64,000 nucleotides of DNA from Candidatus Methanophagaceae archaeon (GCA_003194425.1 PQXB01000001.1:263522-327521), one strand, 5' to 3'; counted from the first letter of the stretch, positions 5,423 through 27,933 are shown. Program-made: numbers and translations. The notes: a model not told the origin generated them from the sequence alone.

Positions 5423-7870
5423 ATGGAAAGGATAATTGGAATAGCAATTTTCGTTTTGCTAGTCGCAGGGGTAGGGGCAGCGAGCGCCGACACCTTCGTG
5501 CCAGGCGAGGTGATTGTTGGTTTCGAGCGGGCAACAGGAGTGCAGGCACAGGAATCGCTGATAAAAAGCTGCGGCGGGGCAGTAACAGACAGAGACACCA
5601 CGCTTGGCTGGGTGTTAGCGAAGGTAGAAGAGGGGAAAGAGCAGGAATTTATCGCGAACATTTCGGGAGAGCGGGGCGTGAGGTACGCGGAGCGGAACGG
5701 AGTTGTAAGAGCGCTTTACGTTCCTAACGACCCAAAATGGAGTGAGCAGTGGGGACTGGAGAGAATAAACGCGGACGACGCTTGGAAGGTCGAGAAAGGC
5801 AGCACGAGCGTTAAAATCGCGATCGTGGACACAGGCGTAGACTACAACCACGAAGACTTAAACGCGAACTACTTTAGCGGGGGCTACGACTGGGTTAACA
5901 ATGACAGCGACCCTTGGGACGACTCGGTAGGGCAGTACCACGGACACGGCACACACTGCGCTGGGATTGCAGCCGCGGAGATGGATAATTCTGCAGGAAT
6001 CGCCGGCGTCGCGCAAGTCGGAATTCTGGCTGAAAAAGTTATTAACGAGACTGGCTACGGCTCTTACTCGGACTTGGCTAGCGGAATTCAGCACGCCGCA
6101 GCGCAGGGTGCAAAAATAATAAGCCTGAGCGTTGGCGGGAGTTCGGCTTCGCCCACTCTAAAAAATGCCTGCAAGTACGCCTGGGACAAGGGCTGCCTCC
6201 TCGTTGCCGCTGCCGGGAACGACGACACAACCGAAGTCTGCTACCCTGCACGCTACGAGACTGTAGTCGCGGTCGGCGCGATAAATGAGGTGGGCGTTAA
6301 GTCGATTTACAGCAACTACGGACCTGATGTTGAGCTGGCAGCACCCGGCGACGACATTCTCTCGACCCTTCCGAACAACACTTACACCCGCAAATTTGGG
6401 ACTTCGGCGGCTACTCCTTTTGTCGCCGGTGTTGCAGGGTTAGTTTGGTCGCGGAGTCCCGAGCTGACGAACGAGGAGGTGCGGGAGCGGTTGCACAGGG
6501 TCAGCACAGACTACGACTGGGTTGAGTACGGTTTGGTGGACGCAGCGAGGGCGCTCTCCACAGCCGCGGGGTCAGACTACGCACGGGCGGGCTCGCTGAT
6601 TGTAACGATTGGAAAAAACGCAACGACGCAGGTTAGCGTCGGGAACGCGAAAAATATTACCGGCGTCTCGTTGAACCTTGAGTACGACGCCTCTAAACTC
6701 TCGGTTCAAAAAATAGCCGCGAACGAGACGACAAACCAATCTTCAAACGGCTCCTGCTACTGCTACAGCAACACAACCTCCGCAGGAGTCGCAAGAATCG
6801 TTTTCCTCACCGCAGAACCGCTCAACTCAACAACAAGCGAGACCCCGATTCTTGACATTGAATTCAAGGCAGTAGGGGGCGCAGACACTCGCTCTTACTT
6901 GAATTTGAGTAGCGTCGAGTTTGCGAACGCGGGCTACCTGCCTTTCGCACCTTCAAAAGTCTTCAACGGCACGGTAGAGGTGAAGTCCTCCCTTTACGGC
7001 GTGAACCTAACCGTAGAAGGAACGAAGTGTGCGTGGAATTTCACTGAGCCGAACGAGAACGCAACTTTCCTCCTTGCACTGCGCAACACGGGCGTCGTTG
7101 CTGACAACTACACGCTTGAGGTTGAGAGCCCAGAGGGGGCGGAGGTCGCTGCGTTGAACTCAACAGAAATAACAAACCTCGCACCAGAGGCGACCGCAAA
7201 AGTCCTGCTTCAAGTAACCTCCGCAGACGAGGGTACTTACACTGTAAATGTAACCGCGACCTCAGAATGCGACCTGGACATTTACGACCAAGTCACGACG
7301 AGGACGCTCGTAGCCACGAGATATAATTTGCAAACAAGCCTGCTCGAAGGCTGGAACCTGTTCGGAGTGCCGCTAAATGTGAGTGTCGAGGTCGGTGGCA
7401 GTGGCTGGAGTTTGCCCGCGGTCTTGGCTTCAATCGAGGGAAAATACGACTACCTCTCCTACTACAACACGAGCACTGGGAGAACAGATTTCTACGACCC
7501 GCTCAACACCGAATTCTCGACGCTAAAGACCCTGAAACCCGGAGCAGGCTACCTCGTCCACCTAACTGAAGAGGCACCTGTCTCGCTCGAGTTTGAGGGT
7601 GTGAAGTTAAGGGGGTTGGAAGTGCCGTTGGAGAGAGGTTGGAATATGTTCTCGGTTCCGTACGGCGTAGCGGATAAAACGCTACCCGCGGTTCTGAAAT
7701 CAATCGAGGGAAACTACGACTACATTTACTACTACAACGCGACCACAGGGGAAATGGACTACTACGACCCGCTTAATCCCGAACTTTCAACGCTGAAAAT
7801 TTTAGAACCCGGAGCTGGGTATTTAATACACATAATTAACAAAGTAACATATTTTCCGGCAATTAAATAA
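5423..7870 (+). CDS. Secreted subtilisin-like serine protease (S8) with internal cohesin-like domain and C-terminal tandem modules
   Basis: Catalytic triad motifs DTGVDYNHEDL, HGTHCAGIAAA, GTSAATPFVAG; cohesin-like segment ~6590..6990 (LEYDASKLSV, ARIVFLTAE, FNGTVEV); two ~75-aa C-terminal repeats. Confidence 0.85.
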   Translation: MERIIGIAIFVLLVAGVGAASADTFVPGEVIVGFERATGVQAQESLIKSCGGAVTDRDTTLGWVLAKVEEGKEQEFIANISGERGVRYAERNGVVRALYVPNDPKWSEQWGLERINADDAWKVEKGSTSVKIAIVDTGVDYNHEDLNANYFSGGYDWVNNDSDPWDDSVGQYHGHGTHCAGIAAAEMDNSAGIAGVAQVGILAEKVINETGYGSYSDLASGIQHAAAQGAKIISLSVGGSSASPTLKNACKYAWDKGCLLVAAAGNDDTTEVCYPARYETVVAVGAINEVGVKSIYSNYGPDVELAAPGDDILSTLPNNTYTRKFGTSAATPFVAGVAGLVWSRSPELTNEEVRERLHRVSTDYDWVEYGLVDAARALSTAAGSDYARAGSLIVTIGKNATTQVSVGNAKNITGVSLNLEYDASKLSVQKIAANETTNQSSNGSCYCYSNTTSAGVARIVFLTAEPLNSTTSETPILDIEFKAVGGADTRSYLNLSSVEFANAGYLPFAPSKVFNGTVEVKSSLYGVNLTVEGTKCAWNFTEPNENATFLLALRNTGVVADNYTLEVESPEGAEVAALNSTEITNLAPEATAKVLLQVTSADEGTYTVNVTATSECDLDIYDQVTTRTLVATRYNLQTSLLEGWNLFGVPLNVSVEVGGSGWSLPAVLASIEGKYDYLSYYNTSTGRTDFYDPLNTEFSTLKTLKPGAGYLVHLTEEAPVSLEFEGVKLRGLEVPLERGWNMFSVPYGVADKTLPAVLKSIEGNYDYIYYYNATTGEMDYYDPLNPELSTLKILEPGAGYLIHIINKVTYFPAIK

Positions 7871-7886
7871 AATAGGAGACAGAGAA

Positions 7887-10800
7887 ATGGGAGAAAAGGG
7901 AAGGAAGAGAGAGGGGGGAAAGTGGAAGAAGAGACGACTGATTGGAGTAGCGGCGGTGGGGGCGATATTAGTGACGACTTTTGCTTCGCAGGCTGTGTGC
8001 GCATCGGTGCCGTTGTTTAATGAGGCAATACTTAGAGGGTATGTTTTCGATACGCAGGGAAATCCAATACAAAGGGCATTAATTGAATGGCGAGATAGCG
8101 AGACTATGGAACTATTTGAACTTACAACCACAACCTACACAGGATATTATTCCACGCCACACTTGTTCAACGACGCGGGCGCCGTAAGATCCTTGATAAC
8201 CGCCGCAAAGACAGACTTCTCTACTAACTCAACAATAATAACGACCGAGCCTGCTTTTCCGCCTACATTTTACGAACTGAATTTTACATTGCTTGAAATA
8301 GCGGAAACAGGCAGCATAAACATAAACGAGATAATGTACAATCCAAGCACGGAGCAAGGAAGCGACACCGTGCTGGAGTGGATTGAACTGCGCAACGACG
8401 ACACAGCAGCAGTGAACCTAAACGGCTGGACGATTGCGACACCCGAAGTAGGAAAAATAACAGAAGAAATAATTCTGCAGCCGGGAGGTTACGCAGTGCT
8501 TGCGAGGAACAAGGACGCGTTTGAGGCCTACTACGGTGCCGGTGGCGAGTTGTCGTGCTCGGTGGTAGAAGTGGAAATGAGACTTGGAAATGCAGAGGAC
8601 ACGGTAGTCTTGAAAGACGGTGCAGGAACAGAAATCGACCGGGTGTCCTACAAGGACGACTGGGGTGCGGACGGTAACGGGAAAACACTGGAACTAATTG
8701 GAGCAGGCGGGGGCTGGCGAGAGAGCGTAGCAGACGACGGAACGCCTTGTGCAGAGAACAGCGTAGTTTTTATGAAGCCCGACCTGACGGTTACCGTTTC
8801 AGACGGCTCGCTTAACTGCGGCTTCCTCTTCGGGAACGAGAGCAACGAGGTCTGCGTAACTGTCGAGAACATCGGCACTGACAGGACAGACGCGTTCAAC
8901 CTCTCCTTCGATATGAACGGCTTCAGCACAGAAGAGCGAGTGGCTGGCGGGTTAGTGGCTGGCGGGAATGCAACAACGGTCTGCGTCGCCGACCCGACGC
9001 TGCGAAGTGCGGGCGATTCGGTGACCGTTCGCGTCGTCGCAGACTGCAACGGCGAAATTACTGAGTCGAACGAGACGAACAACGCAGCCAGCCTCACAAC
9101 AACAGTCGTGAACAACGGCTACAAAGGAAAACGATACACCGGCGGCGAGGACATCGCCAGTTGGAAGAAATTTGAACTCAACGGCGACCTGCTCTACTCT
9201 GTCGGCGACAGTTTCTATCTGAGTGCTTACACCTACAAGCACTGGACGGAGTACGCTGCAAACTGGACTGTGAGCGACCTGCAAGTTCCTGATACTGAAA
9301 CTGCGACCGTTAGAGAGGCGAGGTTGTACGTGCCTTACACCTGGGACAAGGCAGGTGTGATGCCCGACGAGGTGAGCCTGACCTTCAACGGCGTGACTCA
9401 AACGTTGGACGCACACTACACGGATGAGAAAATGCACGCTACCAGCTACCCCTACGGAATGCTGGTATACAATGTAACCGAAGATTTGGATACAAGCGCA
9501 AGCGGCAACACCGCAGTACTCACTAACTCTCACCTCGGTGGCGGAAATGTGTCAATTCGCGGAATGCTTCTCACGGTGATTTACGCAGACGAGAGCGAGC
9601 CACTGCGTGAGATATTTGTTAACGAGGAGTTTGACCTGCTCTACGGCGGGGCGTCAAAATGCACGACGCCCGAGGAGGCGACCGCTTACGCTCCTTTCGG
9701 AACTGCTGACACTGAAGATGTTCTTTCTGCCACGCTGGTAACAGTCGCTCCTGGTGCAGGACCGAGTGAGGGGGAGCTGACCTTTAACGGGCAGAAATGG
9801 ACGGACGTGTGGAGTTTTGCAGGCGCTACGCAAATAGGAATAGACAAGCGAGAAGTAACTTCGTTCTTGCAGGCGGCCGAGAACGAAGCGGGGTTCCAAA
9901 GCAGCGCCGACTACTTTGAACCGAGCAACGCAATTCTCGTTGTAGAACACATTGAGCGGGTAAACCTAAACATAAACGAGATAATGTACAATCCAAGCAA
10001 GGAGCAAGGAAGCGACACCGTGCTGGAGTGGCTTGAACTGCGCAACGACGACACAGCAGCAGTGAACCTAAACGGCTGGACGATTGCGACACCCGAAGTA
10101 GGAAAAATAACAGAAGAAATAATTCTGCAGCCTGGAGGTTACGCAGTGCTTGCGAGGAACAAGGACGCGTTTGAAAATTACTACGGTGCCGGTGGCGAGT
10201 TGTCGTGCTCGGTGGTAGAAGTGGAAATGAGACTTGGAAATGCAGAGGACACGGTAGTCTTGAAAGACGGTGCAGGAACAGAGATCGACCGGGTGTCCTA
10301 CAAGGACGACTGGGGTGCGGACGGTAACGGGAAAACACTGGAATGGAATGCGACAGGCTGGTTTGAGAGCGAAGTAGAGGGCGGAACGCCTTGTGCAGAG
10401 AACAGCGTAGTTTTTATGAAGCCCGACCTGACGGTTACCGTTTCAGACGGCTCGCTTAACTGCGGCTTCCTCTTCGGGAACGAGAGCAACGAGGTCTGCG
10501 TAACTGTCGAGAACATCGGCACTGACAGGACAGACGCGTTCAACCTCTCCTTCGATATGAACGGCTTCAGCACAGAAGAGCGAGTGGCTGGCGGGTTAGT
10601 GGCTGGCGGGAATGCAACAACGGTCTGCGTCGCCGACCCGACGCTGCGAAGTGCGGGCGATTCGGTGACCGTTCGCGTCGTCGCAGACTGCAACGGCGAA
10701 ATTACTGAGTCGAACGAGACGAACAACGCAGCCAGCCTCACAACAACAGTCGTGAACAACGGCTACAAAGGAAAACGATACACCGGCGGCGAGGACATCG

Positions 10801-13436
10801 CCAGTTGGAAGAAGTTTGAACTCAAAGGCAACTTGCTCTACTCGGTCGGCGACAGTTTTTACCTGAGTTCCTCCACGCAGAAGCACTGGGCGACCTACAC
10901 TGCCAACTGGACTACAGGAGACCTACCAGTTCCCGAGACTGCGACTGTTAGAGAGGCGAGGTTGTACGTGCCTTACACCTGGGACAAGGCAGGTGTGATG
11001 CCCGACGAGGTGAGCCTGACCTTCAACGGCGTTGCTCAAACACTGGATGCACACTACACAGACAGGAAAGGCTACGGCTCCTACGACTACCCTTACGGAG
11101 CGCTGGCTTACAATGTAACCTCGGGTTTTGACCTTGACGTAAGGAACACCGCAGTGCTAACGAACACACACCCCGGCGGTGGAAATGTGTCAATTCGCGG
11201 AATGCTTCTCACGGTGATTTACGCAGACGAGAGCGAGCCACTGCGGGAGATATTTGTTAACGAGGAGTTTGACCTGCTCTACGGCGGGGCGTCAAAATGC
11301 ACGACGCCCGAGGAGGCGACCGCTTACGCTCCTTTCGGAACTGCTAACACTGAAGATGTTTTCTCTGCCACGCTGATAACAGTCGCTCCTGGTGCAGGAC
11401 CGAGTGAGGGGGAGCTGACCTTCAACGGGCAGAAATGGACGGACGTGTGGAGTTTTGCAGGCGCTACGCAAATAGGAATAGATAAGCGAGAAGTAACTGC
11501 GTTCTTGCAGGCGGCCGAGAACGAAGCGGGGTTCCAAAGCAGCGCCGACTACTTTGAACCGAGCAACGCATTCCTCGTTGTAGAACACAAGAGGCCAGAC
11601 CTTGTCGTCAGAGGGATTAAAATAAACCCCAACGGCACTCGCGGCGAAGAGATTGTTAGGGTTTATGTAAATGAGAGCAACAACCTCACTGCAGTCGTGC
11701 AGAACAACGGAAATGCCGACGCAGGAGCGTTTGAGGTCTGCTTCGAGGTGGGTTCAGGCGTTGAGGTCGGCTGCGTAAACGTGGCTGGACTGCCTGCTGG
11801 GGCTAACGCAACGGTCAGCACCTTTTGGACGCCGTGTTGCGAAAACTACTCGGTTGAGCCCGGTTTCCCGGCACGCTCGCTTCCCACAACTGTAAATGTA
11901 ACTGCGGACTGCACTGAAAAAATACCCGAGTCAGACGAGGCGAACAACCTGCTCTCGAAGTTTATTCCCGCTGTTCAGCAGTACGCGGGCTACGATGTTT
12001 TAGGCGGGGTCGTTAACAACGGCTACAAGAGCAAGAACTTCGACTGCAACGCCACTGAAGAGCCGCTGACACTCTTCGAGCACGAGGAGGAGTTGCTCGG
12101 CGGCGGTCTCGCGTTAAATGTAAGCGGTGCGAAAATCAGTTCCTTCGATCCCGGCGAGACCAGCACAAGAACCCACCACATTGAAATTCCTGAAGGTGCA
12201 ACCGTGAAAACCGCGAGGCTCTACGTCTACTGGTACGACAAATGGGGTAACTACAAGCAGTACCCAACTGGGTGCTTGGCGGACCTCAGCGTGAATTTTG
12301 GTGGCACCGAGTTCGCACCCGCAAAGAAATACAACGACCAGAAGGGCTTCGGCTACTACCACAGCCCGAAAGGAACTTACACCTACAACGTGACCTCAAA
12401 GGTGCGAGAAGCCGGGTCTGGCGACTACACCGCAGTCGTCAAGAACACCGACCCCAAGAACAGCACGACCCTACTCGGCGAAATGCTACTCGTCGTCTAC
12501 GACGACCCAGCGAAGACAAACCTCACGCAAATTTGGGTGCTTGAGGGCAACGACTACTTAATGTCCGCAGACGAGACGCACAACAGCTACAACTACGGCG
12601 TCTCGCCAGAAGAGGCGACTGCAACCGTGAAATTACCCGGAAACCTCTCGACAGCGGCAGCGAATCTCAGTTCCGTCTGCTCTGCAACGCTAATTTCGGT
12701 CGTCGCGCAGGGAATGTCGCCTGGAGCAAACCTACTCTTCAACGGCGAAGTCGTTAAGACAGACGCTTGGAACACGGAGACCGAAGCCTACCCAAACAGC
12801 AAAATTAATTTGGAGTCGTTAGATGTGAAGCCCTACCTGACCTTAACCGCTTCAGGCAACAGAGGAAACAGCGTTGGCTTCCAAGACACTGGCACCGACG
12901 GTCTGCAGGCGAGCAACGCGATTCTTGTGGTGGAATATTCTGAGCAAGAGCCACTGCACCCCGCTGTTTCAATTTCCACCGACAAAACAGACTACACCCC
13001 TGGCGAGACAATGCAAATTACACTGAACTTGTCAAATCCAACGGGGACTGACCAAACGGTGTGGTTTGAGTGGTACTTTGGAATACCGGCTTACAGCTAC
13101 TGGCTGCCTTTTGTAGAGCCTTTGCCTTTAAATTTGCCCGCGGGTTGCGAGTACTCCTTCCCCTTTTCAATTTTGGTAGGCAACTGGGGCGAGACGGGAT
13201 TTGACGCAGTCTGGCTCGTGAACCTGTCAGACCCGGTAACGCACAAAATTATAAGTTCTGACACTGCCGAGTGGAGCTACGCCCCTGTTCCTCCTGCTAC
13301 TGCTGTTGCTACCGCTGCAGTTAGCAGCGAGCAAACGCGAAGCGTAGAGAACTTTGATGAGGAAATGTTAGGTTCAGGCAGAGAAATAGAAAAGAAGTTA
13401 AAGGCAAAATTAGAAAGTGAAACAGAAAAAAGATGA
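7887..13436 (+). CDS. Giant secreted protein (1849 aa): 2x [lamin-tail domain - CARDB-like - NNGY module], a third diverged module, and the shared C-terminal domain
   Basis: Signal peptide; LTD-like INEIMYNP...EWIELRN...NLNGWTI; CARDB-like ...ITESNETNN; C-terminal SISTDKTDYTPGETMQI...AEWSYA domain. Confidence 0.85.
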   Translation: MGEKGRKREGGKWKKRRLIGVAAVGAILVTTFASQAVCASVPLFNEAILRGYVFDTQGNPIQRALIEWRDSETMELFELTTTTYTGYYSTPHLFNDAGAVRSLITAAKTDFSTNSTIITTEPAFPPTFYELNFTLLEIAETGSININEIMYNPSTEQGSDTVLEWIELRNDDTAAVNLNGWTIATPEVGKITEEIILQPGGYAVLARNKDAFEAYYGAGGELSCSVVEVEMRLGNAEDTVVLKDGAGTEIDRVSYKDDWGADGNGKTLELIGAGGGWRESVADDGTPCAENSVVFMKPDLTVTVSDGSLNCGFLFGNESNEVCVTVENIGTDRTDAFNLSFDMNGFSTEERVAGGLVAGGNATTVCVADPTLRSAGDSVTVRVVADCNGEITESNETNNAASLTTTVVNNGYKGKRYTGGEDIASWKKFELNGDLLYSVGDSFYLSAYTYKHWTEYAANWTVSDLQVPDTETATVREARLYVPYTWDKAGVMPDEVSLTFNGVTQTLDAHYTDEKMHATSYPYGMLVYNVTEDLDTSASGNTAVLTNSHLGGGNVSIRGMLLTVIYADESEPLREIFVNEEFDLLYGGASKCTTPEEATAYAPFGTADTEDVLSATLVTVAPGAGPSEGELTFNGQKWTDVWSFAGATQIGIDKREVTSFLQAAENEAGFQSSADYFEPSNAILVVEHIERVNLNINEIMYNPSKEQGSDTVLEWLELRNDDTAAVNLNGWTIATPEVGKITEEIILQPGGYAVLARNKDAFENYYGAGGELSCSVVEVEMRLGNAEDTVVLKDGAGTEIDRVSYKDDWGADGNGKTLEWNATGWFESEVEGGTPCAENSVVFMKPDLTVTVSDGSLNCGFLFGNESNEVCVTVENIGTDRTDAFNLSFDMNGFSTEERVAGGLVAGGNATTVCVADPTLRSAGDSVTVRVVADCNGEITESNETNNAASLTTTVVNNGYKGKRYTGGEDIASWKKFELKGNLLYSVGDSFYLSSSTQKHWATYTANWTTGDLPVPETATVREARLYVPYTWDKAGVMPDEVSLTFNGVAQTLDAHYTDRKGYGSYDYPYGALAYNVTSGFDLDVRNTAVLTNTHPGGGNVSIRGMLLTVIYADESEPLREIFVNEEFDLLYGGASKCTTPEEATAYAPFGTANTEDVFSATLITVAPGAGPSEGELTFNGQKWTDVWSFAGATQIGIDKREVTAFLQAAENEAGFQSSADYFEPSNAFLVVEHKRPDLVVRGIKINPNGTRGEEIVRVYVNESNNLTAVVQNNGNADAGAFEVCFEVGSGVEVGCVNVAGLPAGANATVSTFWTPCCENYSVEPGFPARSLPTTVNVTADCTEKIPESDEANNLLSKFIPAVQQYAGYDVLGGVVNNGYKSKNFDCNATEEPLTLFEHEEELLGGGLALNVSGAKISSFDPGETSTRTHHIEIPEGATVKTARLYVYWYDKWGNYKQYPTGCLADLSVNFGGTEFAPAKKYNDQKGFGYYHSPKGTYTYNVTSKVREAGSGDYTAVVKNTDPKNSTTLLGEMLLVVYDDPAKTNLTQIWVLEGNDYLMSADETHNSYNYGVSPEEATATVKLPGNLSTAAANLSSVCSATLISVVAQGMSPGANLLFNGEVVKTDAWNTETEAYPNSKINLESLDVKPYLTLTASGNRGNSVGFQDTGTDGLQASNAILVVEYSEQEPLHPAVSISTDKTDYTPGETMQITLNLSNPTGTDQTVWFEWYFGIPAYSYWLPFVEPLPLNLPAGCEYSFPFSILVGNWGETGFDAVWLVNLSDPVTHKIISSDTAEWSYAPVPPATAVATAAVSSEQTRSVENFDEEMLGSGREIEKKLKAKLESETEKR
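8317..9952 (+). repeat. Intragenic tandem duplication, copy 1 (~1.64 kb)
   Basis: By eye about 95-97% identical to 9967..11592; mirrored by duplicated antisense shadow ORFs in the ORF track. Confidence 0.9.
9967..11592 (+). repeat. Intragenic tandem duplication, copy 2 (~1.63 kb)
   Basis: Direct repeat of 8317..9952 with a few substitutions and short indel blocks. Confidence 0.9.
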
Positions 13437-14986
13437 AAAGGAGGATTAAAATTTGCGGTGCGACGCTGCTGTTGGTCTTGGTAGTTTCGGCGTTTGCAGT
13501 GCCAAGCGGAGTGGCCGGAGTGGCAGCCCTTGAGAGACCGACTTACGGCGTTGAACTGACCGTAGACGGCGGCAACAAGACTGCGAACCAGTCCGTGCGG
13601 CTTGGTGAGAACGCGACCTACAACCTGAGCCTTACGAACGCAGGAAATGCCACAGACCGCTACACGCTGAACTTTTCGAACCCGAACAACGCGACAACCT
13701 GCGGGCTGCTGCTCGGTGCGGCGAGTCTCAAAAAGAACCTAACGACAGCAGTCTTGGTGCCCGGAGAGAGAGCGAATTTAACGCTCGTCGTCGGAAACTC
13801 GACCGAAGGAGTGTTCAAAGTGAACGTAACCGCTACCTCTGTGAACGACCCTGCAAATGCAACCGTTAACACAACGACTACGGTTGGGACAGCACCAACG
13901 AGCCCTTCACTCGTCTCCTACACCATTTCCAACCGCACAATAACGCCACCCCAAACCACAGAAATAGATGTTAGATTCTCGGAGCAGGTGGAAGCGTGGA
14001 TAAAAATCGAAGATTCCGAGAGAAATTTGGTGAACGAGTTGTACCACAGCCCTGCCGTGACCAACCCAAAACCTAAAATCTGGGACGCAACCTTCACAAA
14101 CGGAACACTCGTTGGAGACGGCGACTATTTTGTAAATGTTACTGGGACCTGCGCATGCAGCAGCATAGAATGCACCGTAACGAACGACACCGAAATTATC
14201 ACCGTTACCCTCCCGCCAGACACCGACACCACGCCACCCGCGGTAACAGACCCAACTGCAACGCCCGAGACGATTCTTGCCGACGGAGTCCAAACCTCGC
14301 TCTTGAGTGTGACTGTCAAAGATGAGACCGCGGTTGACACTGTCGTAGTGAACCTCTCGCAAATCGGCGGGTCGCCAGCACAGGTCTTGGAACTCATCAA
14401 CAGCACGCTCTTTCTCTACGGCACGACGACAAACGCGTCGGTGGGAACGCCACCCGGAACCTACAACCTAACAGTCTCTGCAACTGACATTTACGGGAAC
14501 TCTAACGCGTCGGTGAGCTTTCGGCTGACCGTTACCGAACCAAGACTCGCTGTTTCAATTTCCACCGACAAAACAGACTACGCCCCTGGCGAGACAATGC
14601 AAATCCAACTGAACTTGTCAAATCCCACGCCCGCCGACCAAATGCTGCTGTTTGCGTGGTACTTTGCGATCCCTGACTACAGCTACCAGACCGCCGTCGT
14701 AGCACCTACGCTTGTTATTTTACCAGCGGGCTGCGACTTTTCCTTCCTCCTTCCAATGCCTGTGGGCGACTGGGGTGCGACAGATTTCAACGCTACTTGG
14801 TCTGTTGAACTGCTCAACCCGCTGACCTACAGCGTCGTAGACGACGACACTGCCGAGTGGCGTTACACGGCTGTGCGTGCGGCGGCAGGAGCGGAAATTG
14901 CAGGAGAAGAGGCGGCAGCAGCAGAGAAAATCGGTGCGGAAATAAAGAGAGAGCTAAACAAAGAGGGAGGGGTGCTACCTTTTTAA
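13433..14986 (+). CDS. Secreted protein with Ig-like (CARDB/NEW3-type) region and the shared C-terminal domain
   Basis: Signal peptide MKRRIKICGATLLLVLVVSAFA; C-terminal SISTDKTDYAPGETMQIQLNLSNPT...AEWRYTA then charged tail; start overlaps stop of the upstream gene (ATGA). Confidence 0.8.
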   Translation: MKRRIKICGATLLLVLVVSAFAVPSGVAGVAALERPTYGVELTVDGGNKTANQSVRLGENATYNLSLTNAGNATDRYTLNFSNPNNATTCGLLLGAASLKKNLTTAVLVPGERANLTLVVGNSTEGVFKVNVTATSVNDPANATVNTTTTVGTAPTSPSLVSYTISNRTITPPQTTEIDVRFSEQVEAWIKIEDSERNLVNELYHSPAVTNPKPKIWDATFTNGTLVGDGDYFVNVTGTCACSSIECTVTNDTEIITVTLPPDTDTTPPAVTDPTATPETILADGVQTSLLSVTVKDETAVDTVVVNLSQIGGSPAQVLELINSTLFLYGTTTNASVGTPPGTYNLTVSATDIYGNSNASVSFRLTVTEPRLAVSISTDKTDYAPGETMQIQLNLSNPTPADQMLLFAWYFAIPDYSYQTAVVAPTLVILPAGCDFSFLLPMPVGDWGATDFNATWSVELLNPLTYSVVDDDTAEWRYTAVRAAAGAEIAGEEAAAAEKIGAEIKRELNKEGGVLPF

Positions 14987-15009
14987 CCTCCTCTTTTTTC
15001 TTTATTTTT

Positions 15010-16401
15010 ATGACACGGAAAAGAAGCGGAAGTGCAGTTCTTCTCGTCACAGCACTCCTTATTTTCGCTTTTATTTCTCTAACTTTAATTCTAACTCTAA
15101 CTCCCAGCGTTAGCGCTGCGGAAAGTCTAACTCCCAGCGTTAGCGCTGCGGAAAGCGCTGCGGAAAGCGAGACCGAAAATAAATTTTGCATCACGAAAAT
15201 CAGCCCCAGGAATATACAGCCCGCAGACATTTCCACAGTGAGCGTAACGATAAAAAATATCGGCTCGCATTCCGCATTTCACGTCGCGACCGAGGTTGAG
15301 ACGGCTAAGATGCTTGCGGGCGAGACGGGCGAAACGGGTGAGACAACGCCTGTAAAGGTCGTAGGAAGGGCGAAGAAGAGCGTAGGGACGACTTCTCTGA
15401 ACTCGCTTGGTTGCGACCGAGAAGCAACAGTCAAGTACGACTTTTATGTCGAGAAGGACGCAGAAGCGAGCACCTACAACATTCCGCTGAAAGTTCTCTG
15501 GCGGGAGAAGCCCGAGGAGGTGGGGAGAGAGGGGTGGAGAGGAAGAGAAGGAGAAGAGAACGAGGTGCGAAGCGAGACATTGTATTTTGGGGTCAGAGTG
15601 CTTGGGCAGTCGAGAGCGGCGGAAATTGATGTTGTCAATGTTACAACCGCTCCTGCTGGTGCAGGAATTAAGCCTGGCGCGGAGGCGACCCTAAAAATCA
15701 AACTCAAAAATATCGGCGGTTTGACGGTTAGCAGGCTTAAGGTAAGGCTGACTGCAGAAGAGCCGTTCACACCGCTTGATTCCGACTTAGAGCAGTACCT
15801 AACAGACCTAAAGCCAAACGAGACGAGGACAGCGTATTTTAATCTCTCGGTGGACAGAGAAGCCGCGAGTTCGTGCTACGAACTACCGCTCGTCTTGGAG
15901 TACGAGGACGAGTTCGGCAGTCACGAAAAGAACACCTCGGTCGGCGTTTCCGTGAAAGGCAGCCCGAGAGTTCTTATTCAGGAAATTATTCTCGAGCCCA
16001 GCAAATTGAGTAGTGGCACCGAAGGGCTGCTTATGATTCGGCTGATAAACACAGGCACGGAGAGTGCAGAGGACACGAAAATAAGAATCGCAGGAGCAGA
16101 AGGGATTTTAACCGAAGGGCACCAGTTCATCGGCGAAATCGCACCCGACGAATCGGAAACCGCAACCTTCGGCGTCTCGGTTGCTGAAGAAGAAGTTGAG
16201 ACAGGAAAACACGGTCTGACGATAAAAATCGCCTACGAGGACGAGTTCGGAACGAGCTGCCCTGCAAACTCCAAAATCTACGAAATAACCGTCTTTGAGT
16301 CCGAGCCGTTCTTGCCGACGAAATATGTTTACGCTTTGGCGGGCGTTGCAGCGGCGGCGGTGGTAGGTTACCTTTTACTAGTAGTGAGGCTCAAAAAATG
16401 A
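15010..16401 (+). CDS. Cell-surface protein with N-terminal signal peptide and C-terminal transmembrane anchor
   Basis: ATG 15010 preferred over ORF-track start 14857 (which overlaps the upstream gene); C-terminus YALAGVAAAAVVGYLLLVVRLKK; short tandem repeats near N-terminus. Confidence 0.65.
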   Translation: MTRKRSGSAVLLVTALLIFAFISLTLILTLTPSVSAAESLTPSVSAAESAAESETENKFCITKISPRNIQPADISTVSVTIKNIGSHSAFHVATEVETAKMLAGETGETGETTPVKVVGRAKKSVGTTSLNSLGCDREATVKYDFYVEKDAEASTYNIPLKVLWREKPEEVGREGWRGREGEENEVRSETLYFGVRVLGQSRAAEIDVVNVTTAPAGAGIKPGAEATLKIKLKNIGGLTVSRLKVRLTAEEPFTPLDSDLEQYLTDLKPNETRTAYFNLSVDREAASSCYELPLVLEYEDEFGSHEKNTSVGVSVKGSPRVLIQEIILEPSKLSSGTEGLLMIRLINTGTESAEDTKIRIAGAEGILTEGHQFIGEIAPDESETATFGVSVAEEEVETGKHGLTIKIAYEDEFGTSCPANSKIYEITVFESEPFLPTKYVYALAGVAAAAVVGYLLLVVRLKK

Positions 16402-17255
16402 GGAGAACGCAAAAAAAAGGAACGGGGAGACAGGTTTTTTTGTTGGTTTTGTTTCTGTGCTATTTTCTGCTCTTGACTCCTTACATTGTGCACACGAACC
16501 TGAACGAAGTTGGAGGAGGGGTTGTCGAGGACTTGAAGACCGTCCCAGTTCCGTCTCTTCCTGCAGACATTCAGGACCTTGTCTTTGACTTTGGCGGGGA
16601 CGAAAGCGACTGCACGGTTCTTTTGCTGGAAAACAGCGTCTCGGGCGAGAGAACAGCCGTTGTAACCGTCCAAGACTGCGAAATCCAAAAGGGCGCGGTG
16701 GTGAAGGTTACAGACAAAATAATCGAGTGGTTCGTGGACTGGCACGCCTACCAGTCCTGCAGCGGCTTTGACTTTGGCGAGAAGTTTGGAGTCCTTGTTG
16801 TCGGCGAGGTCGCAGAGGTTAGTGCAGCAGAGTCGGGCGTTGAAAAGGTTCTTTCCTCCCGCCCCCTCGGCAGTCCCCTCTTCACGCTTTCAAAGGCGTC
16901 TTTTCTCTTTGCTCCGCTGCTGCTCGTAGTTTGCCTTAGTCTCGGCACCAGAAACCGCTTTTACCTCTGGAACTTCGCTGCGGTCTTGGCTCTCTACTCT
17001 TTTGAAGTCTTTCTGCTCAACACCGCAGGGAGCGTGCTGCACGAGGTTGCGCTAGCGGGAGCAAGAGCTGGGGTAGGGGCAGAGGGAGGAGGAGTGGGTG
17101 CAGCAGAGGGTTGGAAATATTTTGGCTACTTGTTTGTGCTGTTAGTCCCCTTCACCGTTCTTTTCGCACGCTACGAGGAGAGCGAAGAGGGGCAGAGGAG
17201 ACTAAAAAAGTTTTACGCGGGGCTGCTTGAGTTAGTTGATCGTTTGTTTCAGTGA
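16398..17255 (+). CDS. Hypothetical membrane protein
   Basis: ATG overlaps stop of the upstream gene (translational coupling); several hydrophobic segments. Confidence 0.5.
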   Translation: MRRTQKKGTGRQVFLLVLFLCYFLLLTPYIVHTNLNEVGGGVVEDLKTVPVPSLPADIQDLVFDFGGDESDCTVLLLENSVSGERTAVVTVQDCEIQKGAVVKVTDKIIEWFVDWHAYQSCSGFDFGEKFGVLVVGEVAEVSAAESGVEKVLSSRPLGSPLFTLSKASFLFAPLLLVVCLSLGTRNRFYLWNFAAVLALYSFEVFLLNTAGSVLHEVALAGARAGVGAEGGGVGAAEGWKYFGYLFVLLVPFTVLFARYEESEEGQRRLKKFYAGLLELVDRLFQ

Positions 17256-17472
17256 AACTACTTAAAGACGTAAAAGAAACTTTTAATGAAGGAGAAAAAG
17301 CAGAGAAAGAAAAATGTCAGGCTCGTCTGTTTCAAGTTGGATGAGAGCGTCTGGGGGGAACGCCGTGGGAAAAATAGAAATAAGAGAGGAAAACCGAAGC
17401 GGAGAGGAAAGACGCTTTACAAGTAAAAACCCTCTAAAGTCAAAAAAAAATTAGGAGGTGAAAAAAGAAAAA

Positions 17473-19188
17473 ATGAAAACCAAAAGACTACTAAGCCTTT
17501 TAATAGTTTTTACAGTGGTGCTGAGTGTAAGCGTGAGTGCAGGAACGGTCTCGGCAGCGACGCCGAACGACGGGCCAGGTTCGAGCACGAGCAGCGGTGC
17601 GTTTTCTGGAGCAGAGGTGTTGGGTTTGCCGAGGAGTTTCACGCTCGAGGACAGCTTTGGCTACACTTGGGATTTGGACATCGTTTTTGGATGCGTGCTG
17701 TACGGCACAAAGACCTCGAGCATTGGGACCTACCCAGCGTACGGGTACGTATTCGGGAACGAGATGGTTCTGTGGGCTGACAACCCCGGTTCTCCCTACT
17801 CGGACAGCTTTGCCTACACCGGAATGTGGAACTACAAAACAATGAAATTCGACGGAAAATGGGTCGGCTACCCAAAAGGGTCAGGCAATGTCTCAATGTG
17901 GTTTGCTAAGAGTGCGGTAGGCGAAGGAGAAGAAAAGACCTGGACGAGCGAGAATGTAGAAGAAGGACCTGACGCGGCGGCAAGTGCAGGCACAGAGACA
18001 GCGGTTGCACAACAAGCGGTTGCACAACAAAACCTCGATGCTGCGCCGAGCACTGAAGGTAGCGCTAGTGCTAGTGCGACATTCTTGATTGACGGAGAGA
18101 ACGCGGAAGAAGAGATTAGCGGTCTGTTTAGTCGCGGTGCGATTTGCCTCGAAGACAGCTTTAGCTACACCTGGGATTTGGACATCCTCTACGGCTGCAT
18201 CTTGTACGGCACAAAGACCTCGGGTATTGGAACTCATCCCGCGTACGGCTTCGTATTCGGCGACGAAATGTTCCTCTGGGCTGACAATCCTGGTGGGGAA
18301 TATTCAGACAGCTTCGTCTACACCGGGAAGTGGAACGCCGCGGTAACGCTCTTCAACGGAACCTGGATTAACTATCCGATGGGGTCTTCAGGCACGGTCG
18401 AAGTGTGGCCCTGCGGTGGTGGACCAACTGAGACAGAGTACTACGCCGTAATCGCGGGCGAGGGTTACGGTTGTAGTTACGCCGACAGCGACGCCTACGA
18501 TATGTACGGACTTCTTACGAGCGAGTTCAACAACAACTGGAAGAAGGAGAACGTCAGGCTGTTAGTGAGCACCGCGGACGGGACGAAACACGACTGCACA
18601 CGGACAAAGATTCGGAACGGGATTTCGTGGATGGCGAGCGAAGCGGACGAGGACGATGTTAGCCTCTTCTTCTACGCGGGGCACGGCGGTTACCAGACGG
18701 ATGTGACACCACTCGACGAAAGCGACGGCAACGACGAATACATTTGCCCCGAGGGCGGGAACATTCTTGACGACGAACTCAACAACTGGTTGTCTGCGGT
18801 GCCTGGGTACAAGCTGGTCGCACTCGACTCCTGCTTCAGCGGCGGGTTCATTAAAGCCGACGGAGCAGAGGTTAGGAGCGTGCCGGGACTGCCGAGAATT
18901 GACCGAACCGACGGTTTCAGAGAAGACCTCTGCAAGAAGGGGTTCAACGTGCACACCGCCTGCGACGAGGACGAGAGTGCCTACGGCTACGCAGCACTGA
19001 ACAACGGCGTCTTCACTTACTACCTCGTGCAGGGTCTTTACGGACCCGCAGACTCGGACAGCGACGGAGACATAGACTCGTTTGAAGCACACACCTACAC
19101 AAGACCAAAAGTAATTTCGTACACTGGCGGCGACCAGAACCCCTGGCGCTGCGCTGGCACAACTGACCCGCTGATTTGGGTGCTGTAA
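17473..19188 (+). CDS. Secreted caspase-domain (C14 / metacaspase-like, clan CD) cysteine peptidase with two N-terminal tandem domains
   Basis: ATG 17473 after AGGAGGTGA; signal peptide; His motif FYAGHGG and Cys motif LDSCFSGG; ~100-aa domain repeated twice (FTLEDSFGYTWDLDI... / ICLEDSFSYTWDLDI...). Confidence 0.7.
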   Translation: MKTKRLLSLLIVFTVVLSVSVSAGTVSAATPNDGPGSSTSSGAFSGAEVLGLPRSFTLEDSFGYTWDLDIVFGCVLYGTKTSSIGTYPAYGYVFGNEMVLWADNPGSPYSDSFAYTGMWNYKTMKFDGKWVGYPKGSGNVSMWFAKSAVGEGEEKTWTSENVEEGPDAAASAGTETAVAQQAVAQQNLDAAPSTEGSASASATFLIDGENAEEEISGLFSRGAICLEDSFSYTWDLDILYGCILYGTKTSGIGTHPAYGFVFGDEMFLWADNPGGEYSDSFVYTGKWNAAVTLFNGTWINYPMGSSGTVEVWPCGGGPTETEYYAVIAGEGYGCSYADSDAYDMYGLLTSEFNNNWKKENVRLLVSTADGTKHDCTRTKIRNGISWMASEADEDDVSLFFYAGHGGYQTDVTPLDESDGNDEYICPEGGNILDDELNNWLSAVPGYKLVALDSCFSGGFIKADGAEVRSVPGLPRIDRTDGFREDLCKKGFNVHTACDEDESAYGYAALNNGVFTYYLVQGLYGPADSDSDGDIDSFEAHTYTRPKVISYTGGDQNPWRCAGTTDPLIWVL

Positions 19189-19239
19189 GGCAAGAGAGTA
19201 GAACAGCAGAGAAGAGTAGAAAGGACTGTAAAAAAGAAG

Positions 19240-19290
19240 CCCGGCGTTTTTAGTTTTACTGCGCCGCGCCGGGTGGTTATTTTTTTTTGT
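19240..19290. terminator. Hairpin plus T-tract between convergent genes
   Basis: CCCGGCG...CGCCGGG inverted repeat followed by an oligo-T run. Confidence 0.35.
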
Positions 19291-19783
19291 ATTTTTGGTT
19301 TTTGTATTTTTGGTATTTTTGGATTAGAATTATTGCCGCGGTTAGGGCAGCAACTGACAAAACCGAGATTAAAACGACCTTTTTAAACTTTGTTTTAGAC
19401 TCTTCCGACGGCGGTGAGGGAATTGGGTAGGCTACTTCTACTCCCTCTGCTCCTCCTGCTCCTCTCGGGACGGCGCTGGACAAAATGCGCCCGCTCTCTT
19501 TAGCTACCCAGACTCGCACGTTCGGGTACTGCAGCCCCCGCTCCAACTGCTCGTTCGTCCACCAGTCAACCGCCCAGCAGGGAGTTGAGTTGAAGGACTC
19601 TTCGGAGACGACCGAGAAGGCGTCGGGGTGCTTTGAGAGGAGGGCAGCAGCCTCGGCAGTACTCTTCGAAATCTCCTCTGCTTCGCTCTCGGTTACCGCT
19701 GCAGCCGAGACAACTGCAACAGCGGTCGCCGCTAAGAAAATAAGGGCGAGGCACAAGACTATTTTCTCTCTTCTTTTCGGCAT
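19277..19783 (-). CDS. Hypothetical small membrane-anchored protein
   Basis: N-terminal and C-terminal hydrophobic segments, lysine-rich tail KYQKYKNQKYKKK; sits between two protease genes. Confidence 0.5.
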   Translation of the reverse strand: MPKRREKIVLCLALIFLAATAVAVVSAAAVTESEAEEISKSTAEAAALLSKHPDAFSVVSEESFNSTPCWAVDWWTNEQLERGLQYPNVRVWVAKESGRILSSAVPRGAGGAEGVEVAYPIPSPPSEESKTKFKKVVLISVLSVAALTAAIILIQKYQKYKNQKYKKK

Positions 19784-19889
19784 AATTTTTGTAACCCTTT
19801 TTATAAAGAAGGTTCTTGCTTAAAAATATAGTTAAAGCAAAAGGCAAAACAAAAGGCAAAATAAATGCATTAGGAGGTGAAAACCAAAA

Positions 19890-21893
19890 ATGAAAACAAA
19901 ACAAGATGAGAAAAATAAATCAAAAGCGAAGACAAAGACAAAGGCGATTTACGCGGTGCTACTGCTGGTAGTTTTGGCGCTCGGAGTTTTAGTCGCAGTG
20001 CCAAGCGGTGCGGCAGCAGAAGAGCAGACAGCAGAAGAAAAAACGATTGCGGAGTTGCAGCAAGAGATTTACGAGCAGGGCTACAACTACACGGTCGCCG
20101 AGAACAGGATTACGAGACTTCCGGCAGAAGAGAGAGCGGCAGTCTGCGGCTACAAACCGCTGAAAGCACCCGAAGATCCTGTTCCAGACGAAAATATCAG
20201 GTTCGTTGCTGACGCACCGAGCAGTCAAGGAGCGAAAACAGAAGCAGAGGCAGAAGTCAGGGCGCCAAGTTCTTACGACGCGATGGCACTCGGATTTGTG
20301 ACGCCTGTAAAAGACCAGAGTTATCCTATTCCGTGTGGCAGTTGCTGGATCTTCGGAGCGACCGCGGAATTCGAGTCTGATGTCGCGATCGGCGAAGGAA
20401 CGCTGCTTGACTTCGCGGAGCAGGAGGTCGGGGACTGCAACATTTGGTCAAGCGTCGGCGGCTACGACTTCTGCGACGGCGGGAACGCGTTTATGACCAC
20501 TAACTTCTTTACCAAGCACGGCGCAGCGGACGAAGCCTGCCACCCCTACGCAGCGACACCGCAGACCTGCCAAGACTGCCCTATTCTAAAGAAAGTGGAC
20601 AACTGGCGGATGATTACGGGCAGCAGCGGGGAAAGCCAAATAACGACAATCAAGAACGCGATTCTGAACTACGGACCTGTCTACTCAACAATCTACGCAA
20701 ACGCAGGATTCAAGGCTTACAACAGCGGCGTCTACGAGTACTGGGAAGCAAACGAGACGAACCACGCGATAGAAATTATCGGCTGGGACGACTCGAAAGT
20801 GCACTCGCACGGAACCGGAGCGTGGCTGATAAAGAACAGTTGGGGAACAGATTGGGGAACAGCGGGACCGTACCCGGGCTGCGCCTGGGTAGCGTACGGA
20901 GCAGCAAACCTCGGGGACTACACGAGTGCAGTCACAGGCTACAACGACTTCAACACGGACGACGAGATTTTCTACCACGACGAGTGCGGCTGGATGGGGT
21001 GGTGCACGGGTTACGACACGCCAACAGCCTACGGAGCGGTGCGTTTCACGCCAACGCAGGACACGACACTGACCGCGGTTGACTTCTGGGCTGTTGACCC
21101 AGGAATGCAGTACGAGATAAAAATATTCGACACCCGAAATGCAGTAGGCAGCGGAAAATACACCTTCAGCAGCCAACTCGGCATTACTCAAACAGTAACC
21201 ACAAACGAGCCGGGCTACTACTCCGTGCCACTCACGACAACAGTGCCACTAACAGCAGGCGACGACTTCATCGTGCAGGTGAAAGCAACGACTACGACCG
21301 GCTGGGGCTACCCAGCACCGATCGACTACTGCACTGACTCAGACCTGAACTGGGCGGGAATTGCAACCTCTTCAGGCGAGAGTTACGTGAGCCCTGACGG
21401 GACGGAGTTTGAGAAATACGGCACCGGCGGGAAAGACCTCGGAATAAGAGCCAGAGCAGAGCGAGAAGCCCCGGAAGAACCAGAAATCAGCGTAGAGACA
21501 GACAAGTTCGAGTACTGCCTCGGCGAGACGATGGAAATTAAAATAGCAGTCTCAAACCCGACGAGCAGCCCAGTAACTTTGAAATGGTTCTTTGGGTCGC
21601 CCACGCTGGGAGTTTGGCTGCCGATGTACGTAGGCTCGCTGCCTGCAGGCTACGCGAACACTTTTGTAGTGCCGCTGCCCGTCGAGAAGTGGAGCGAGAC
21701 GCCGTTCAGTGCGGTCTGGTACGTGGACTTGCAGGACCCGGAAACAGGAAAAGAGTTAGCAGCGGACTGTGCGTGCTGGTCGTACGCCTACCCGTACTGC
21801 CCGAAGTGTGAGTCAGAGCCAAAGCTAACGCAGCCTTTAGAAAAAATAGCAGCAGGAAGAGAAATAGGAGAACAAATAAAAGGCTCTGCGTAA
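19890..21893 (+). CDS. Secreted papain-like cysteine protease (C1) with the shared C-terminal domain
   Basis: Cys motif CGSCWIFGA, His motif NHAIEIIGWDD, KNSWGTDWG; signal peptide; C-terminal ETDKFEYCLGETMEI...CWSYAYPY. Confidence 0.85.
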   Translation: MKTKQDEKNKSKAKTKTKAIYAVLLLVVLALGVLVAVPSGAAAEEQTAEEKTIAELQQEIYEQGYNYTVAENRITRLPAEERAAVCGYKPLKAPEDPVPDENIRFVADAPSSQGAKTEAEAEVRAPSSYDAMALGFVTPVKDQSYPIPCGSCWIFGATAEFESDVAIGEGTLLDFAEQEVGDCNIWSSVGGYDFCDGGNAFMTTNFFTKHGAADEACHPYAATPQTCQDCPILKKVDNWRMITGSSGESQITTIKNAILNYGPVYSTIYANAGFKAYNSGVYEYWEANETNHAIEIIGWDDSKVHSHGTGAWLIKNSWGTDWGTAGPYPGCAWVAYGAANLGDYTSAVTGYNDFNTDDEIFYHDECGWMGWCTGYDTPTAYGAVRFTPTQDTTLTAVDFWAVDPGMQYEIKIFDTRNAVGSGKYTFSSQLGITQTVTTNEPGYYSVPLTTTVPLTAGDDFIVQVKATTTTGWGYPAPIDYCTDSDLNWAGIATSSGESYVSPDGTEFEKYGTGGKDLGIRARAEREAPEEPEISVETDKFEYCLGETMEIKIAVSNPTSSPVTLKWFFGSPTLGVWLPMYVGSLPAGYANTFVVPLPVEKWSETPFSAVWYVDLQDPETGKELAADCACWSYAYPYCPKCESEPKLTQPLEKIAAGREIGEQIKGSA

Positions 21894-27690: not shown

Positions 27691-27933
27691 ATGGCGTAAT
27701 GATACAAAAATTAGTAAATATTCTTTTATTTAAAAGAAAGGAAATATTAAAAAGGTGGTTGAAAATGAAAGGCGCTAAAAAAGTTCATTTCCCTGTTCTC
27801 GTGGAGAGGGATGAAAATGGTTTTTTGTGGTTGAATGTCCTTTTCTTCAAGGGTGCTACATACAGGGCAAAACGCTGGACCAGGCGTTGAAAAACAGAAC
27901 ATGCATGAAGAGAAGAAAAAGAGCAAAAGAATA

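Follow-up and report, generated by a model that had tools for sequence, protein, structure and literature searches.

Several kinds of C-terminal attachment or sorting modules have been described. The C-terminal domains (CTDs) of Bacteroidota's type IX secretion system (T9SS), represented by the models TIGR04183 (type A) and TIGR04131 (type B), are immunoglobulin (Ig)-like sandwiches of ~80-100 amino acids (aa) at the extreme C-terminus. They carry no transmembrane (TM) helix and give diverse Sec-exported cargo, encoded by scattered genes, a common address. Type B CTDs are reported to hold their cargo non-covalently on PorP-like proteins (PMC9143113). The PEP-, PGF-, PEF- and VPXXXP-CTERM signals also mark the C-termini of many secreted proteins of one genome, and they are built, within ~25-35 aa, from a motif, a TM helix and clustered basic residues. 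Dockerins (type I/II), which are abundant in the anaerobic methanotrophic archaea of group ANME-1, are small and usually C-terminal domains, consisting of a duplicated calcium-binding F-hand of ~60-70 aa, that attach cargo non-covalently. Here we describe a module of ~140 aa, composed of a folded domain and an acidic helix, at the C-termini of four predicted secreted proteins encoded in a stretch of 64,000 nucleotides (nt), hereafter called the window, from a metagenome-assembled genome (MAG) of a Candidatus Methanophagaceae archaeon (ANME-1). This layout of a folded domain plus a terminal helix with no TM segment is unusual among C-terminal attachment or sorting modules.

ANME-1 archaea are uncultured and perform much of the anaerobic oxidation of methane in marine settings. 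Comparative genomics has found neither recognizable S-layer domains nor archaeosortases A and C in them, and offers no explanation of the way in which their envelope accommodates extracellular proteins such as cytochromes and the many proteins with dockerin or cohesin (PMC5244752, PMC9012536). The module is homologous among its carriers, terminal, present in single copy, followed by a conserved tail, attached to diverse cargo, devoid of TM segments and unannotated. Its best reading, to which we assign a probability of roughly 45%, is that of a lineage-specific module for non-covalent docking or retention in the cell envelope.

A C-terminal module shared by four predicted secreted proteins

The four genes, with the domain and tail that each carries, are located in the window as follows.

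7887..13436, plus strand: gene 1, an open reading frame (ORF) for a 1849-aa predicted secreted protein with Pfam matches to LTD (two), CARDB (three) and DUF3344 (three)
12963..13280, plus strand: domain copy 1, gene 1 residues 1693-1798, by alignment, hidden Markov model (HMM), BLASTP and AlphaFold
13281..13433, plus strand: tail copy 1, 51 aa with the predicted helix ENFDEEMLGSGREIEKKLKAKLESETEK, diverging from the family tail motif
13433..14986, plus strand: gene 2, for a 517-aa predicted secreted protein with a signal peptide and Ig-like repeats
14549..14866, plus strand: domain copy 2, gene 2 residues 373-478, by alignment, HMM and BLASTP
14867..14983, plus strand: tail copy 2, 39 aa, KIGAEIKRELNKEGGVLPF, matching the family motif well and ending in L-P-F
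19890..21893, plus strand: gene 3, for a 667-aa predicted secreted protein with Peptidase_C1 (papain-family) and Lectin_like domains
21483..21785, plus strand: domain copy 3, gene 3 residues 532-632, by alignment, HMM and BLASTP
21786..21890, plus strand: tail copy 3, 35 aa, LEKIAAGREIGEQIKGSA, with the family tail motif recognizable
61411..63042, minus strand: gene 4, a 543-aa ORF for a predicted secreted protein with DUF2341
61525..61830, minus strand: domain copy 4, gene 4 residues 405-506, by alignment, HMM and BLASTP
61414..61524, minus strand: tail copy 4, 37 aa, GLEENLKRVVERMR, an amphipathic charged helix, divergent from the family motif

An initial annotation, made from the sequence alone, proposed that these four proteins end in a common domain. 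All four ORFs exist and the BLASTP matches between copies are far beyond chance (E values of 1e-40 for the LTD protein versus the 517-aa protein, then 8e-22, 5e-14, 3e-17, 2e-11 and 1e-16), so the proposal is upheld; the domain boundaries that it gave are correct to within ~15 nt. When searched with BLASTP against the six-frame translation of the window, each copy retrieves the other three at E values of 1e-40 to 7e-11 and nothing else. Likewise, an HMM built from the four copies detects no fifth copy in the six-frame window, where the next match has E=0.44. The domains are ~105 aa long and the tails 35-51 aa. An alignment of the last ~140-160 residues contains 22 columns that are invariant across the four copies, with 49, 38 and 32% identity to the first copy, and BLASTP gives 59% identity for the modules of genes 1 and 2. 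The start of gene 2 overlaps the stop of gene 1 (ATGA).

As read from the sequence, all four N-termini resemble Sec signal peptides, in that basic residues precede a hydrophobic segment, after which come small residues. For gene 4, the true start is probably an internal methionine ahead of the signal peptide, MTTKTSRKVLAIAF. The product of gene 3 is identical to PXF51111.1, which is labelled 'hypothetical protein C4B55_01460'. Gene 1 also includes a tandem duplication (8317..11444) with a period of ~1.64 kb and 95-98% nucleotide identity (three 300-nt probes, spacing 1638-1650), which looks like a very recent internal doubling of the whole LTD-CARDB-DUF3344 unit. Its counterpart on a syntenic metagenome contig (L001) is shorter and apparently disrupted.

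Relatives of the module were collected by an exhaustive HMMER profile search of 1.84 billion cluster representatives, which yielded 621 clusters (at 50% identity) with E<=1e-3, 300 with E<=1e-10 and 98 with E<=1e-30. The exhaustive search was needed because a word-indexed protein search grossly under-counts the family: four-copy and 37-sequence profiles returned 4 and 20 matches, respectively, all to short proteins. The domain signature begins with S-[IV]-S-T-D-K-x-x-Y-x-P-G-[DE]-T-M ... N-P-T ... W-[YF] ... P ... [LI]-P-A-G and continues through a C-terminal part, W-G ... F ... V ... L ... D ... W-x-Y. Domain copy 4 falls in the largest subfamily, PFGN[VL]FYVQL.

Position and tail statistics are drawn from the best 150 relatives, of which 144 could be analysed. 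The domain lies at the extreme C-terminus in ~135 of the 144 (~94%), where it ends from a few to ~25 residues before the end of the protein; a random distribution of positions among homologs, which would have spoken against a C-terminal tag, is thus not seen. Past the conserved W-x-Y, a median of 31 aa remains, and this remainder measures 21-48 aa in ~90% of these relatives. Exactly one copy of the domain is present in 148 of the 150, and none of them carries the module in a tandem array, whereas PKD and CARDB Ig-like spacer domains do form arrays in these same proteins.

A separate observation concerns P0005 (887 aa, from a metagenome), the only relative in which we saw a clear internal copy. 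Here, DUF2341, a module and its tail are followed by a Thr/Ser-rich linker, a C39-like peptidase and a second module. It is either a genuine fusion that carries two modules or the result of reading through two neighbouring genes.

The cargo is as varied as the initial annotation had suggested from four proteins, with 63 Pfam families found upstream of the module in 92 relatives. Among them are beta-helix/NosD (14), PKD (6), CARDB (5), DUF2341 (4) and cohesin (2), and others include Laminin_G_3, FG-GAP, LVIVD, Kelch, DUF3344, S8, C1 and C39-like domains. A simple hydrophobicity rule identifies a signal-peptide-like N-terminus in 93 of 119 full-length members. This range of cargo bears on whether the module might be a C-terminal propeptide or intramolecular chaperone, comparable to the PPC domain (PF04151), that is removed after export to activate the protein. 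PPC is also a C-terminal beta-sandwich on secreted proteins, several module cargoes are peptidases (C1, S8 and C39-like), and peptidase genes are clustered in the window. However, the cargo is mostly non-peptidase, and most of it, such as the beta-propellers, PKD, CARDB and DUF2341, needs no activation. In addition, neither the four proteins nor the 92 relatives have a PF04151 match on the module, and one relative (P0133) carries six PPC domains as cargo besides its module. We consider a propeptide role highly improbable.

All named relatives belong to ANME-1, Methanophagales or Alkanophaga; those named in the protein search are the ANME-1 cluster archaeon ex4572_4, Methanophagales and Candidatus Methanophagaceae. 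A genome scan with patterns of the PFGNVFYV subfamily matched three species representatives, namely Candidatus Alkanophaga liquidiphilum and two loosely labelled MAGs, and the equivalent scan with patterns of the LTD/517 subfamily gave no match. At least seven family members are encoded on the 1.19-Mb contig that holds the window, and an exact look-up of the 517-aa protein and of P0065 matched no contig. Judging from the sequences recovered, the module is restricted to one lineage, consisting of ANME-1 (Methanophagales) and at least one genome of its sister order, Alkanophagales.

To place the module among known families, we used the models of Pfam-A (2025 copy) and NCBIfam 20.0. No model matches the module above threshold in the four window proteins or in 10 typical relatives, and no family covers it as a majority match in the 92 relatives. 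The sub-threshold traces are to A2M_BRD (E=0.0025, 18.6 bits against a cutoff of 22.7) and Arrestin_C (18.2 bits against a cutoff of 27.7); both fall on the TDKxxYxPGET first strand and span ~25 residues. Profile searches of Protein Data Bank sequences gave nothing significant, with the best matches (E=0.0076 and E=0.014) confined to the first strand or the first few. Thus, a match to a characterized family, which the initial annotation had named as grounds for abandoning its proposal, was not found in Pfam-A, NCBIfam or these sequences. The NCBI labels for module proteins are 'hypothetical' or name the cargo only, and full-text literature searches, whose scope lay mostly outside subscription journals, returned no earlier description. 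By these sequence comparisons, the module is undescribed and has no detectable homology to known C-terminal attachment or sorting modules beyond a generic Ig-like fold.

The sandwich fold and its conserved tail helix

An AlphaFold2 model of the LTD copy, built from an 8-sequence alignment, has a mean predicted local distance difference test (pLDDT) score of 85 and a predicted template modelling score (pTM) of 0.77. It consists of seven strands with pLDDT >90, a linker that is predicted to be disordered (<50) and a long C-terminal helix (construct residues 138-166) at 75-85. The model of a typical member, P0051, built from a 19-sequence alignment, also places the sandwich above 90, with a short tail helix at ~57-69. 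These low values for the linker and the tail helix indicate that the helix is probably not packed on its own domain. The possibility that the helix forms part of its own sandwich fold is accordingly unsupported by the models.

The fold search identifies the predicted structure as a generic Ig-like sandwich that is nearest to CARDB, macroglobulin (MG) and fibronectin type III domains. The seven-stranded arrangement is shared with CARDB (PF07705), with the MG domains of A2M and with the N-domain of the GH66 dextranase, although the CARDB and A2M sequence models remain below their gathering thresholds over the module. The CARDB matches in the LTD protein lie off the module, with residues 297-402 as the best stretch.

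An alignment of the family tails, anchored on their common core, reveals the motif I0-A1-x-E3-I4-x-K6-x-I8-E9-x-[VI]11-E12-L13-P14-S15. The corresponding helix consensus, [DE]-I-A-K-E-I-K-K-T-I-E-R-V-E-L-P-S, describes an acidic amphipathic segment of 14-16 aa at or near the C-terminal end, separated from the sandwich by a variable linker of 8-25 aa. A typical protein therefore ends in ...AMPxVDIAKEIKKTIERVELPS. The last four residues are most often ELPS (16/144), and an end of the form [hydrophobic]-P-x is present in 44/144. Information content reaches 2.6 bits at I0, 3.1 at E3, 3.0 at I4 and ~2 at I8, compared with <1 bit in the linker, and the conserved charges are E3 (104/137), K6 (71/137) and E9 (59/137). 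The peaks thus fall on a single hydrophobic stripe (I0, I4, I8 and V/I11) and on those charged residues, which argues for specific recognition rather than general amphipathicity. Furthermore, the motif occurs twice in tandem in P0034, P0048 and P0088, as expected of an autonomous binding peptide. A survey of the ORF ends in the window and in the small sample of loci L001-L004 found no tail motif that lacks a sandwich.

The initial annotation listed the tail motifs in an order that differs from that of the proteins: LGSGREIEKKLK belongs to the LTD protein, IAAGREIGEQIK to the papain-like protein, IGAEIKRELNK to the 517-aa protein and LEENLKRVVERM to the DUF2341 protein. Two of these tails clearly carry the family motif. 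When scored with a position-specific scoring matrix (PSSM) of the family tail, the tail of the 517-aa protein receives 23 bits, the highest of 72,986 six-frame positions in the window, and that of the papain-like protein (KIAAGREIGEQIKGSA) receives 8.6 bits, beyond the 99.9th percentile. Tails of the latter type (IAKEIGEEIEGSVT) are also found in the relatives P0002, P0003 and P0008-P0013. The other two window tails have diverged from the motif.

These properties of the tail, together with the position of the domain, can be set against the idea that the module is an ordinary accessory Ig-like domain (glycan-binding or a spacer) that is C-terminal by chance and whose tail has no targeting role. 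Its fold is indeed close to that of CARDB and MG domains. However, such domains are found anywhere in a protein and also as tandem arrays, whereas the module is terminal, single and tied to a tail motif that ranks among the best-conserved parts of the alignment. We regard this explanation as improbable.

In the tail helix, a high hydrophobic moment (median 0.60; consensus 0.69) is paired with a low mean hydrophobicity (median 0.18; consensus 0.04). Its net charge is negative, with medians of -1.5 for the final 24 aa and -1 for the 14-residue window of highest amphipathicity, and its hydrophobic face is formed by I, V and L only, with no aromatic residues. A HeliQuest-type lipid-binding discriminant has a median of 0.24 and exceeds 1.34 in 6% of members, whereas reference membrane-targeting helices score 0.94-1.65. 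The combination of a high moment, low hydrophobicity and negative charge suggests a protein- or glycoprotein-binding peptide rather than a lipid anchor, and it is the former that the tail helix looks like by these sequence-based measures. An in-plane membrane anchor, in which the amphipathic helix would rest in the cytoplasmic membrane's outer leaflet like that of E. coli PBP5, would agree with the high moment and with the placement of the helix at the extreme C-terminus behind a flexible linker. The broad hydrophobic face, net positive charge and lipid binding that characterize PBP5-type anchors are nevertheless absent from the predicted helix scores. We have provisionally rejected a lipid-binding helix on these heuristic physicochemical scores and judge such an anchor to be very unlikely.

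The same features set the module apart from the -CTERM signals, as the initial annotation had anticipated when it excluded a PGF/PEF-type signal for the four proteins. None of the four window tails includes a TM-compatible hydrophobic stretch, and the 144 family tails likewise lack a TM helix. Among the latter, a 15-residue Kyte-Doolittle window above 1.6 appears only in P0005, where the scored domain is the internal copy. Where -CTERM signals have a basic cluster, the module usually ends in V-E-L-P-S with the negative median charge noted above, and the NCBIfam scan of the four proteins and 10 relatives matched no -CTERM sorting model.

A second use of an exposed helix would be self-assembly, in which module-bearing proteins would oligomerize or polymerize into a mixed surface layer or matrix, either through contacts between a helix and the sandwich of a different protein or through bundled helices. 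The models, in which the helix does not pack against its own sandwich, agree with this scheme, and a narrow hydrophobic stripe with conserved charges would suit a helix-groove or helix-helix interface. Moreover, the adjacent and translationally coupled genes 1 and 2 bear related modules, the pair is kept in L001, and ANME-1 has no recognized S-layer protein. Conversely, the helix is short and some members have no tail. On balance, self-assembly seems a rather poor prospect.

A possible docking role in the cell envelope

A module that is terminal, single, attached to varied Sec-type cargo, confined to one lineage and equipped with a conserved helix on a flexible linker is more in keeping with an address than with a spacer Ig domain. 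In the mechanism that we propose from sequence features, N-terminal signal peptides would direct the proteins into the Sec pathway for export, after which the C-terminal module would act as an address that they all share. Non-covalent docking onto a component of the ANME-1 envelope, such as a surface-layer or sheath protein or a glycan thereof, would be mediated by the exposed helix and perhaps also by one side of the sandwich. Enzymes and binding proteins of widely differing kinds would in this way be retained at the surface of the cell. The module would thus be a third type of anchor, beside dockerin/cohesin pairs and C-terminal TM or exosortase-type signals.

A functional parallel can be drawn with the T9SS CTDs, which resemble the module in being Ig-like sandwiches at the extreme C-terminus. 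This is a likeness of function and not of ancestry: there is no sequence relation, TIGR04183 and TIGR04131 do not match, and no CTD structure is among the top fold matches. The T9SS host is a diderm member of the Bacteroidota with PorK/L/M/N/SprA/PorU/PorV, whereas the module resides in an archaeon with no outer membrane and no T9SS (T9SS genes were not searched genome-wide), and its named relatives are all from ANME-1, Methanophagales or Alkanophaga. In addition, the conserved terminal amphipathic helix of the module has no equivalent in T9SS CTDs. Dockerins resemble the module in being small and usually C-terminal on diverse secreted cargo, and their non-covalent attachment is of the kind proposed here, but the module has no F-hand motifs, and PF00404 does not match it in the four proteins or in the 92 relatives.

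Several observations weigh against the docking proposal. Approximately 2-3% of members have no tail at all; at one Alkanophaga locus (L004), the frame stops directly past the sandwich, and P0031, P0060 and P0096 are also short-tailed. Such members indicate that the sandwich can stand alone. In the window itself, the tails of the LTD and DUF2341 proteins are charged helices that fit the family motif poorly, and the former is not recognized by the PSSM. No neighbouring gene recurs at the independent loci L002, L004, L005 and L006, where the surrounding genes are unrelated housekeeping genes. This absence of a conserved neighbour fits a tag that is used genome-wide but offers no handle on a partner. 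Finally, the architecture is equally expected of a cleaved sorting signal.

In that alternative, the main rival to docking, a dedicated peptidase or transpeptidase would read the sandwich and helix, remove both and perhaps attach the cargo covalently to an envelope component, as a counterpart in monoderm archaea to the T9SS CTD and its sortase PorU. A terminal, single-copy position on diverse cargo is the signature of sorting signals, and the extreme end of the module is conserved as [VI]-E-[LF]-P-x. Candidate enzymes are at hand: a clan-CD C14 peptidase whose gene lies between module-bearing genes, the peptidases of families S8 and C1 encoded in this cluster, and an exosortase/EpsI/CPBP operon that is present in the window and kept in conspecific contigs. 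Against this, the family tail alignment contains no conserved cleavage site in the linker, and no processing enzyme recurs beside members at the four independent loci. Both the TM helix and the basic cluster of exosortase and archaeosortase substrates are missing, and a conventional candidate substrate is encoded next door. There is also no match to a T9SS-type model, and archaea have no outer membrane to cross. Taken together, we view cleavage as unlikely. For non-covalent docking, as for a cleaved signal, the idea of a C-terminal tag is favoured by the architecture, and what the initial annotation called 'sorting, anchoring or processing' is still deduced from that architecture. Tail peptides spanning ...IAKEIKKTIERVELPS in abundant proteins, if present, would point to an uncleaved docking module.

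Genomic setting and meaning for ANME-1

Three of the four module genes sit in a cluster of extracellular functions, the left part of which, including the pair encoding the LTD and 517-aa proteins, is syntenic in contig L001. Its other genes and the exosortase operon are located as follows.

3743..4912: dockerin protein of 389 aa, in which the PF00404 model detects dockerin
5423..7870, plus strand: S8 peptidase with cohesin, identical to PXF51104.1
14857..16401, plus strand: CARDB/NPCBM_assoc protein of 514 aa with a tripartite C-terminal signal, ...SEPFLPTKYVYALAGVAAAAVVGYLLLVVRLKK
16398..17255: membrane protein of 285 aa with no family, overlapping the stop of the 514-aa CARDB gene
17458..19188, plus strand: C14 (clan CD) caspase-like peptidase with a signal peptide, between module-bearing genes
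31740..34252, minus strand: exosortase/EpsI-like/CPBP operon, from family-model scans

From the sequences, three different C-terminal attachment devices, namely the module, dockerin/cohesin and a TM-type signal, appear to lie side by side in this cluster. The 514-aa CARDB protein is a weak match to a PACE-CTERM 'putative S-layer protein' model, and its signal, of the classical type, comprises a SEPFLP motif, a TM helix and RLKK. This protein, whose true start is probably the internal MTRKRSGSAVLL, is a candidate S-layer-like protein and a candidate exosortase substrate. The S8 subtilase has a fervidolysin-type prodomain and cohesin, and a ~75-aa repeat without a matching Pfam model (GWNLFGVPL...LPAVL.SIEG.YDY..YYN..TG..D.YDPLN.E.STLK.L.PGAGYL.H) is present twice at its end. 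The C14 peptidase has a duplicated N-terminal domain of ~110 aa whose family is unassigned (LEDSF.YTWDLDI..GC.LYGTKTS.IGT.PAYG.VFG.EM.LWADNPG). A small PepSY-like membrane protein is encoded on the opposite strand (19277..19783).

The exosortase (33416..34252, minus strand) matches TIGR02602 (8TM_EpsH) with 142.5 bits against a cutoff of 105.55 and PF09721 at 1e-45, with XrtA as the nearest specific model. It is identical to PXF51124.1, which NCBI labels 'hypothetical', and its downstream partners are an EpsI-like DUF3485 protein and a CPBP/Rce1-like intramembrane protease. The enzyme is of a bacterial type, here in an ANME-1 genome. An exosortase of the kind that is cognate to -CTERM signals is therefore present, but presence alone makes no link to the module, and a shared genome is all that connects the two. 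Because the module has neither a TM helix nor a basic tail, and a conventional candidate substrate occurs in the same cluster, we rejected its reading as an exosortase substrate.

At one of the independent loci (L005; GCA_029935835.1, JAPOGW010001167.1, 1..2200), a toxin-antitoxin pair with a PIN domain is present in two copies, which alternate with fragments of a module gene (C-terminal pieces of 82 aa that bear the tail EVEIADEIRRAVEGVK). The arrangement suggests that the module gene was broken by a duplicated toxin-antitoxin cassette.

Elsewhere in the window, an ATPase subunit B identical to PXF51143.1 and methanogenesis marker 12 are encoded. The gene for orotidine monophosphate decarboxylase lies between one for a fusion of an N6/N4 DNA methyltransferase with an Mrr-type endonuclease domain (27835..29370, plus strand) and a separate Mrr-like gene (30110..30565, plus strand); the flanking genes may represent an inserted restriction-modification element. 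The archaeal RNase P RNA is found at 40392..40675 (plus strand, 189 bits), and one tRNA at 63663..63734 (minus strand). The translations of long ORFs over 40.7-41.9 kb, beside the RNase P gene, are of low complexity, and these ORFs are unlikely to be genes. The ORF at 52861..53829 (minus strand) contains an insertion of tandem repeats, and the two ORFs that adjoin it look by eye like exosome subunits.

The module HMM provides a sequence handle for listing the surface and secreted proteome of ANME-1 organisms. Since the proteins that it would bring together are named 'hypothetical' or by their cargo only, the module deserves an entry in Pfam or NCBIfam. The domain and its tail peptide could serve as bait for an envelope receptor or a processing enzyme, and the module is a candidate display tag for ANME-1-derived proteins. 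If it is instead a processed signal, it would represent a new class of prokaryotic sorting signal. In a bolder version, which we hold to be doubtful, the module would be the tag of a new archaeal sorting or attachment pathway, in which machinery specific to ANME-1 and Alkanophagales cleaves it or locks it onto the envelope. If true, such a pathway would be an analogue of the type IX CTD system in monoderm archaea and an organizing principle of the ANME-1 surface.

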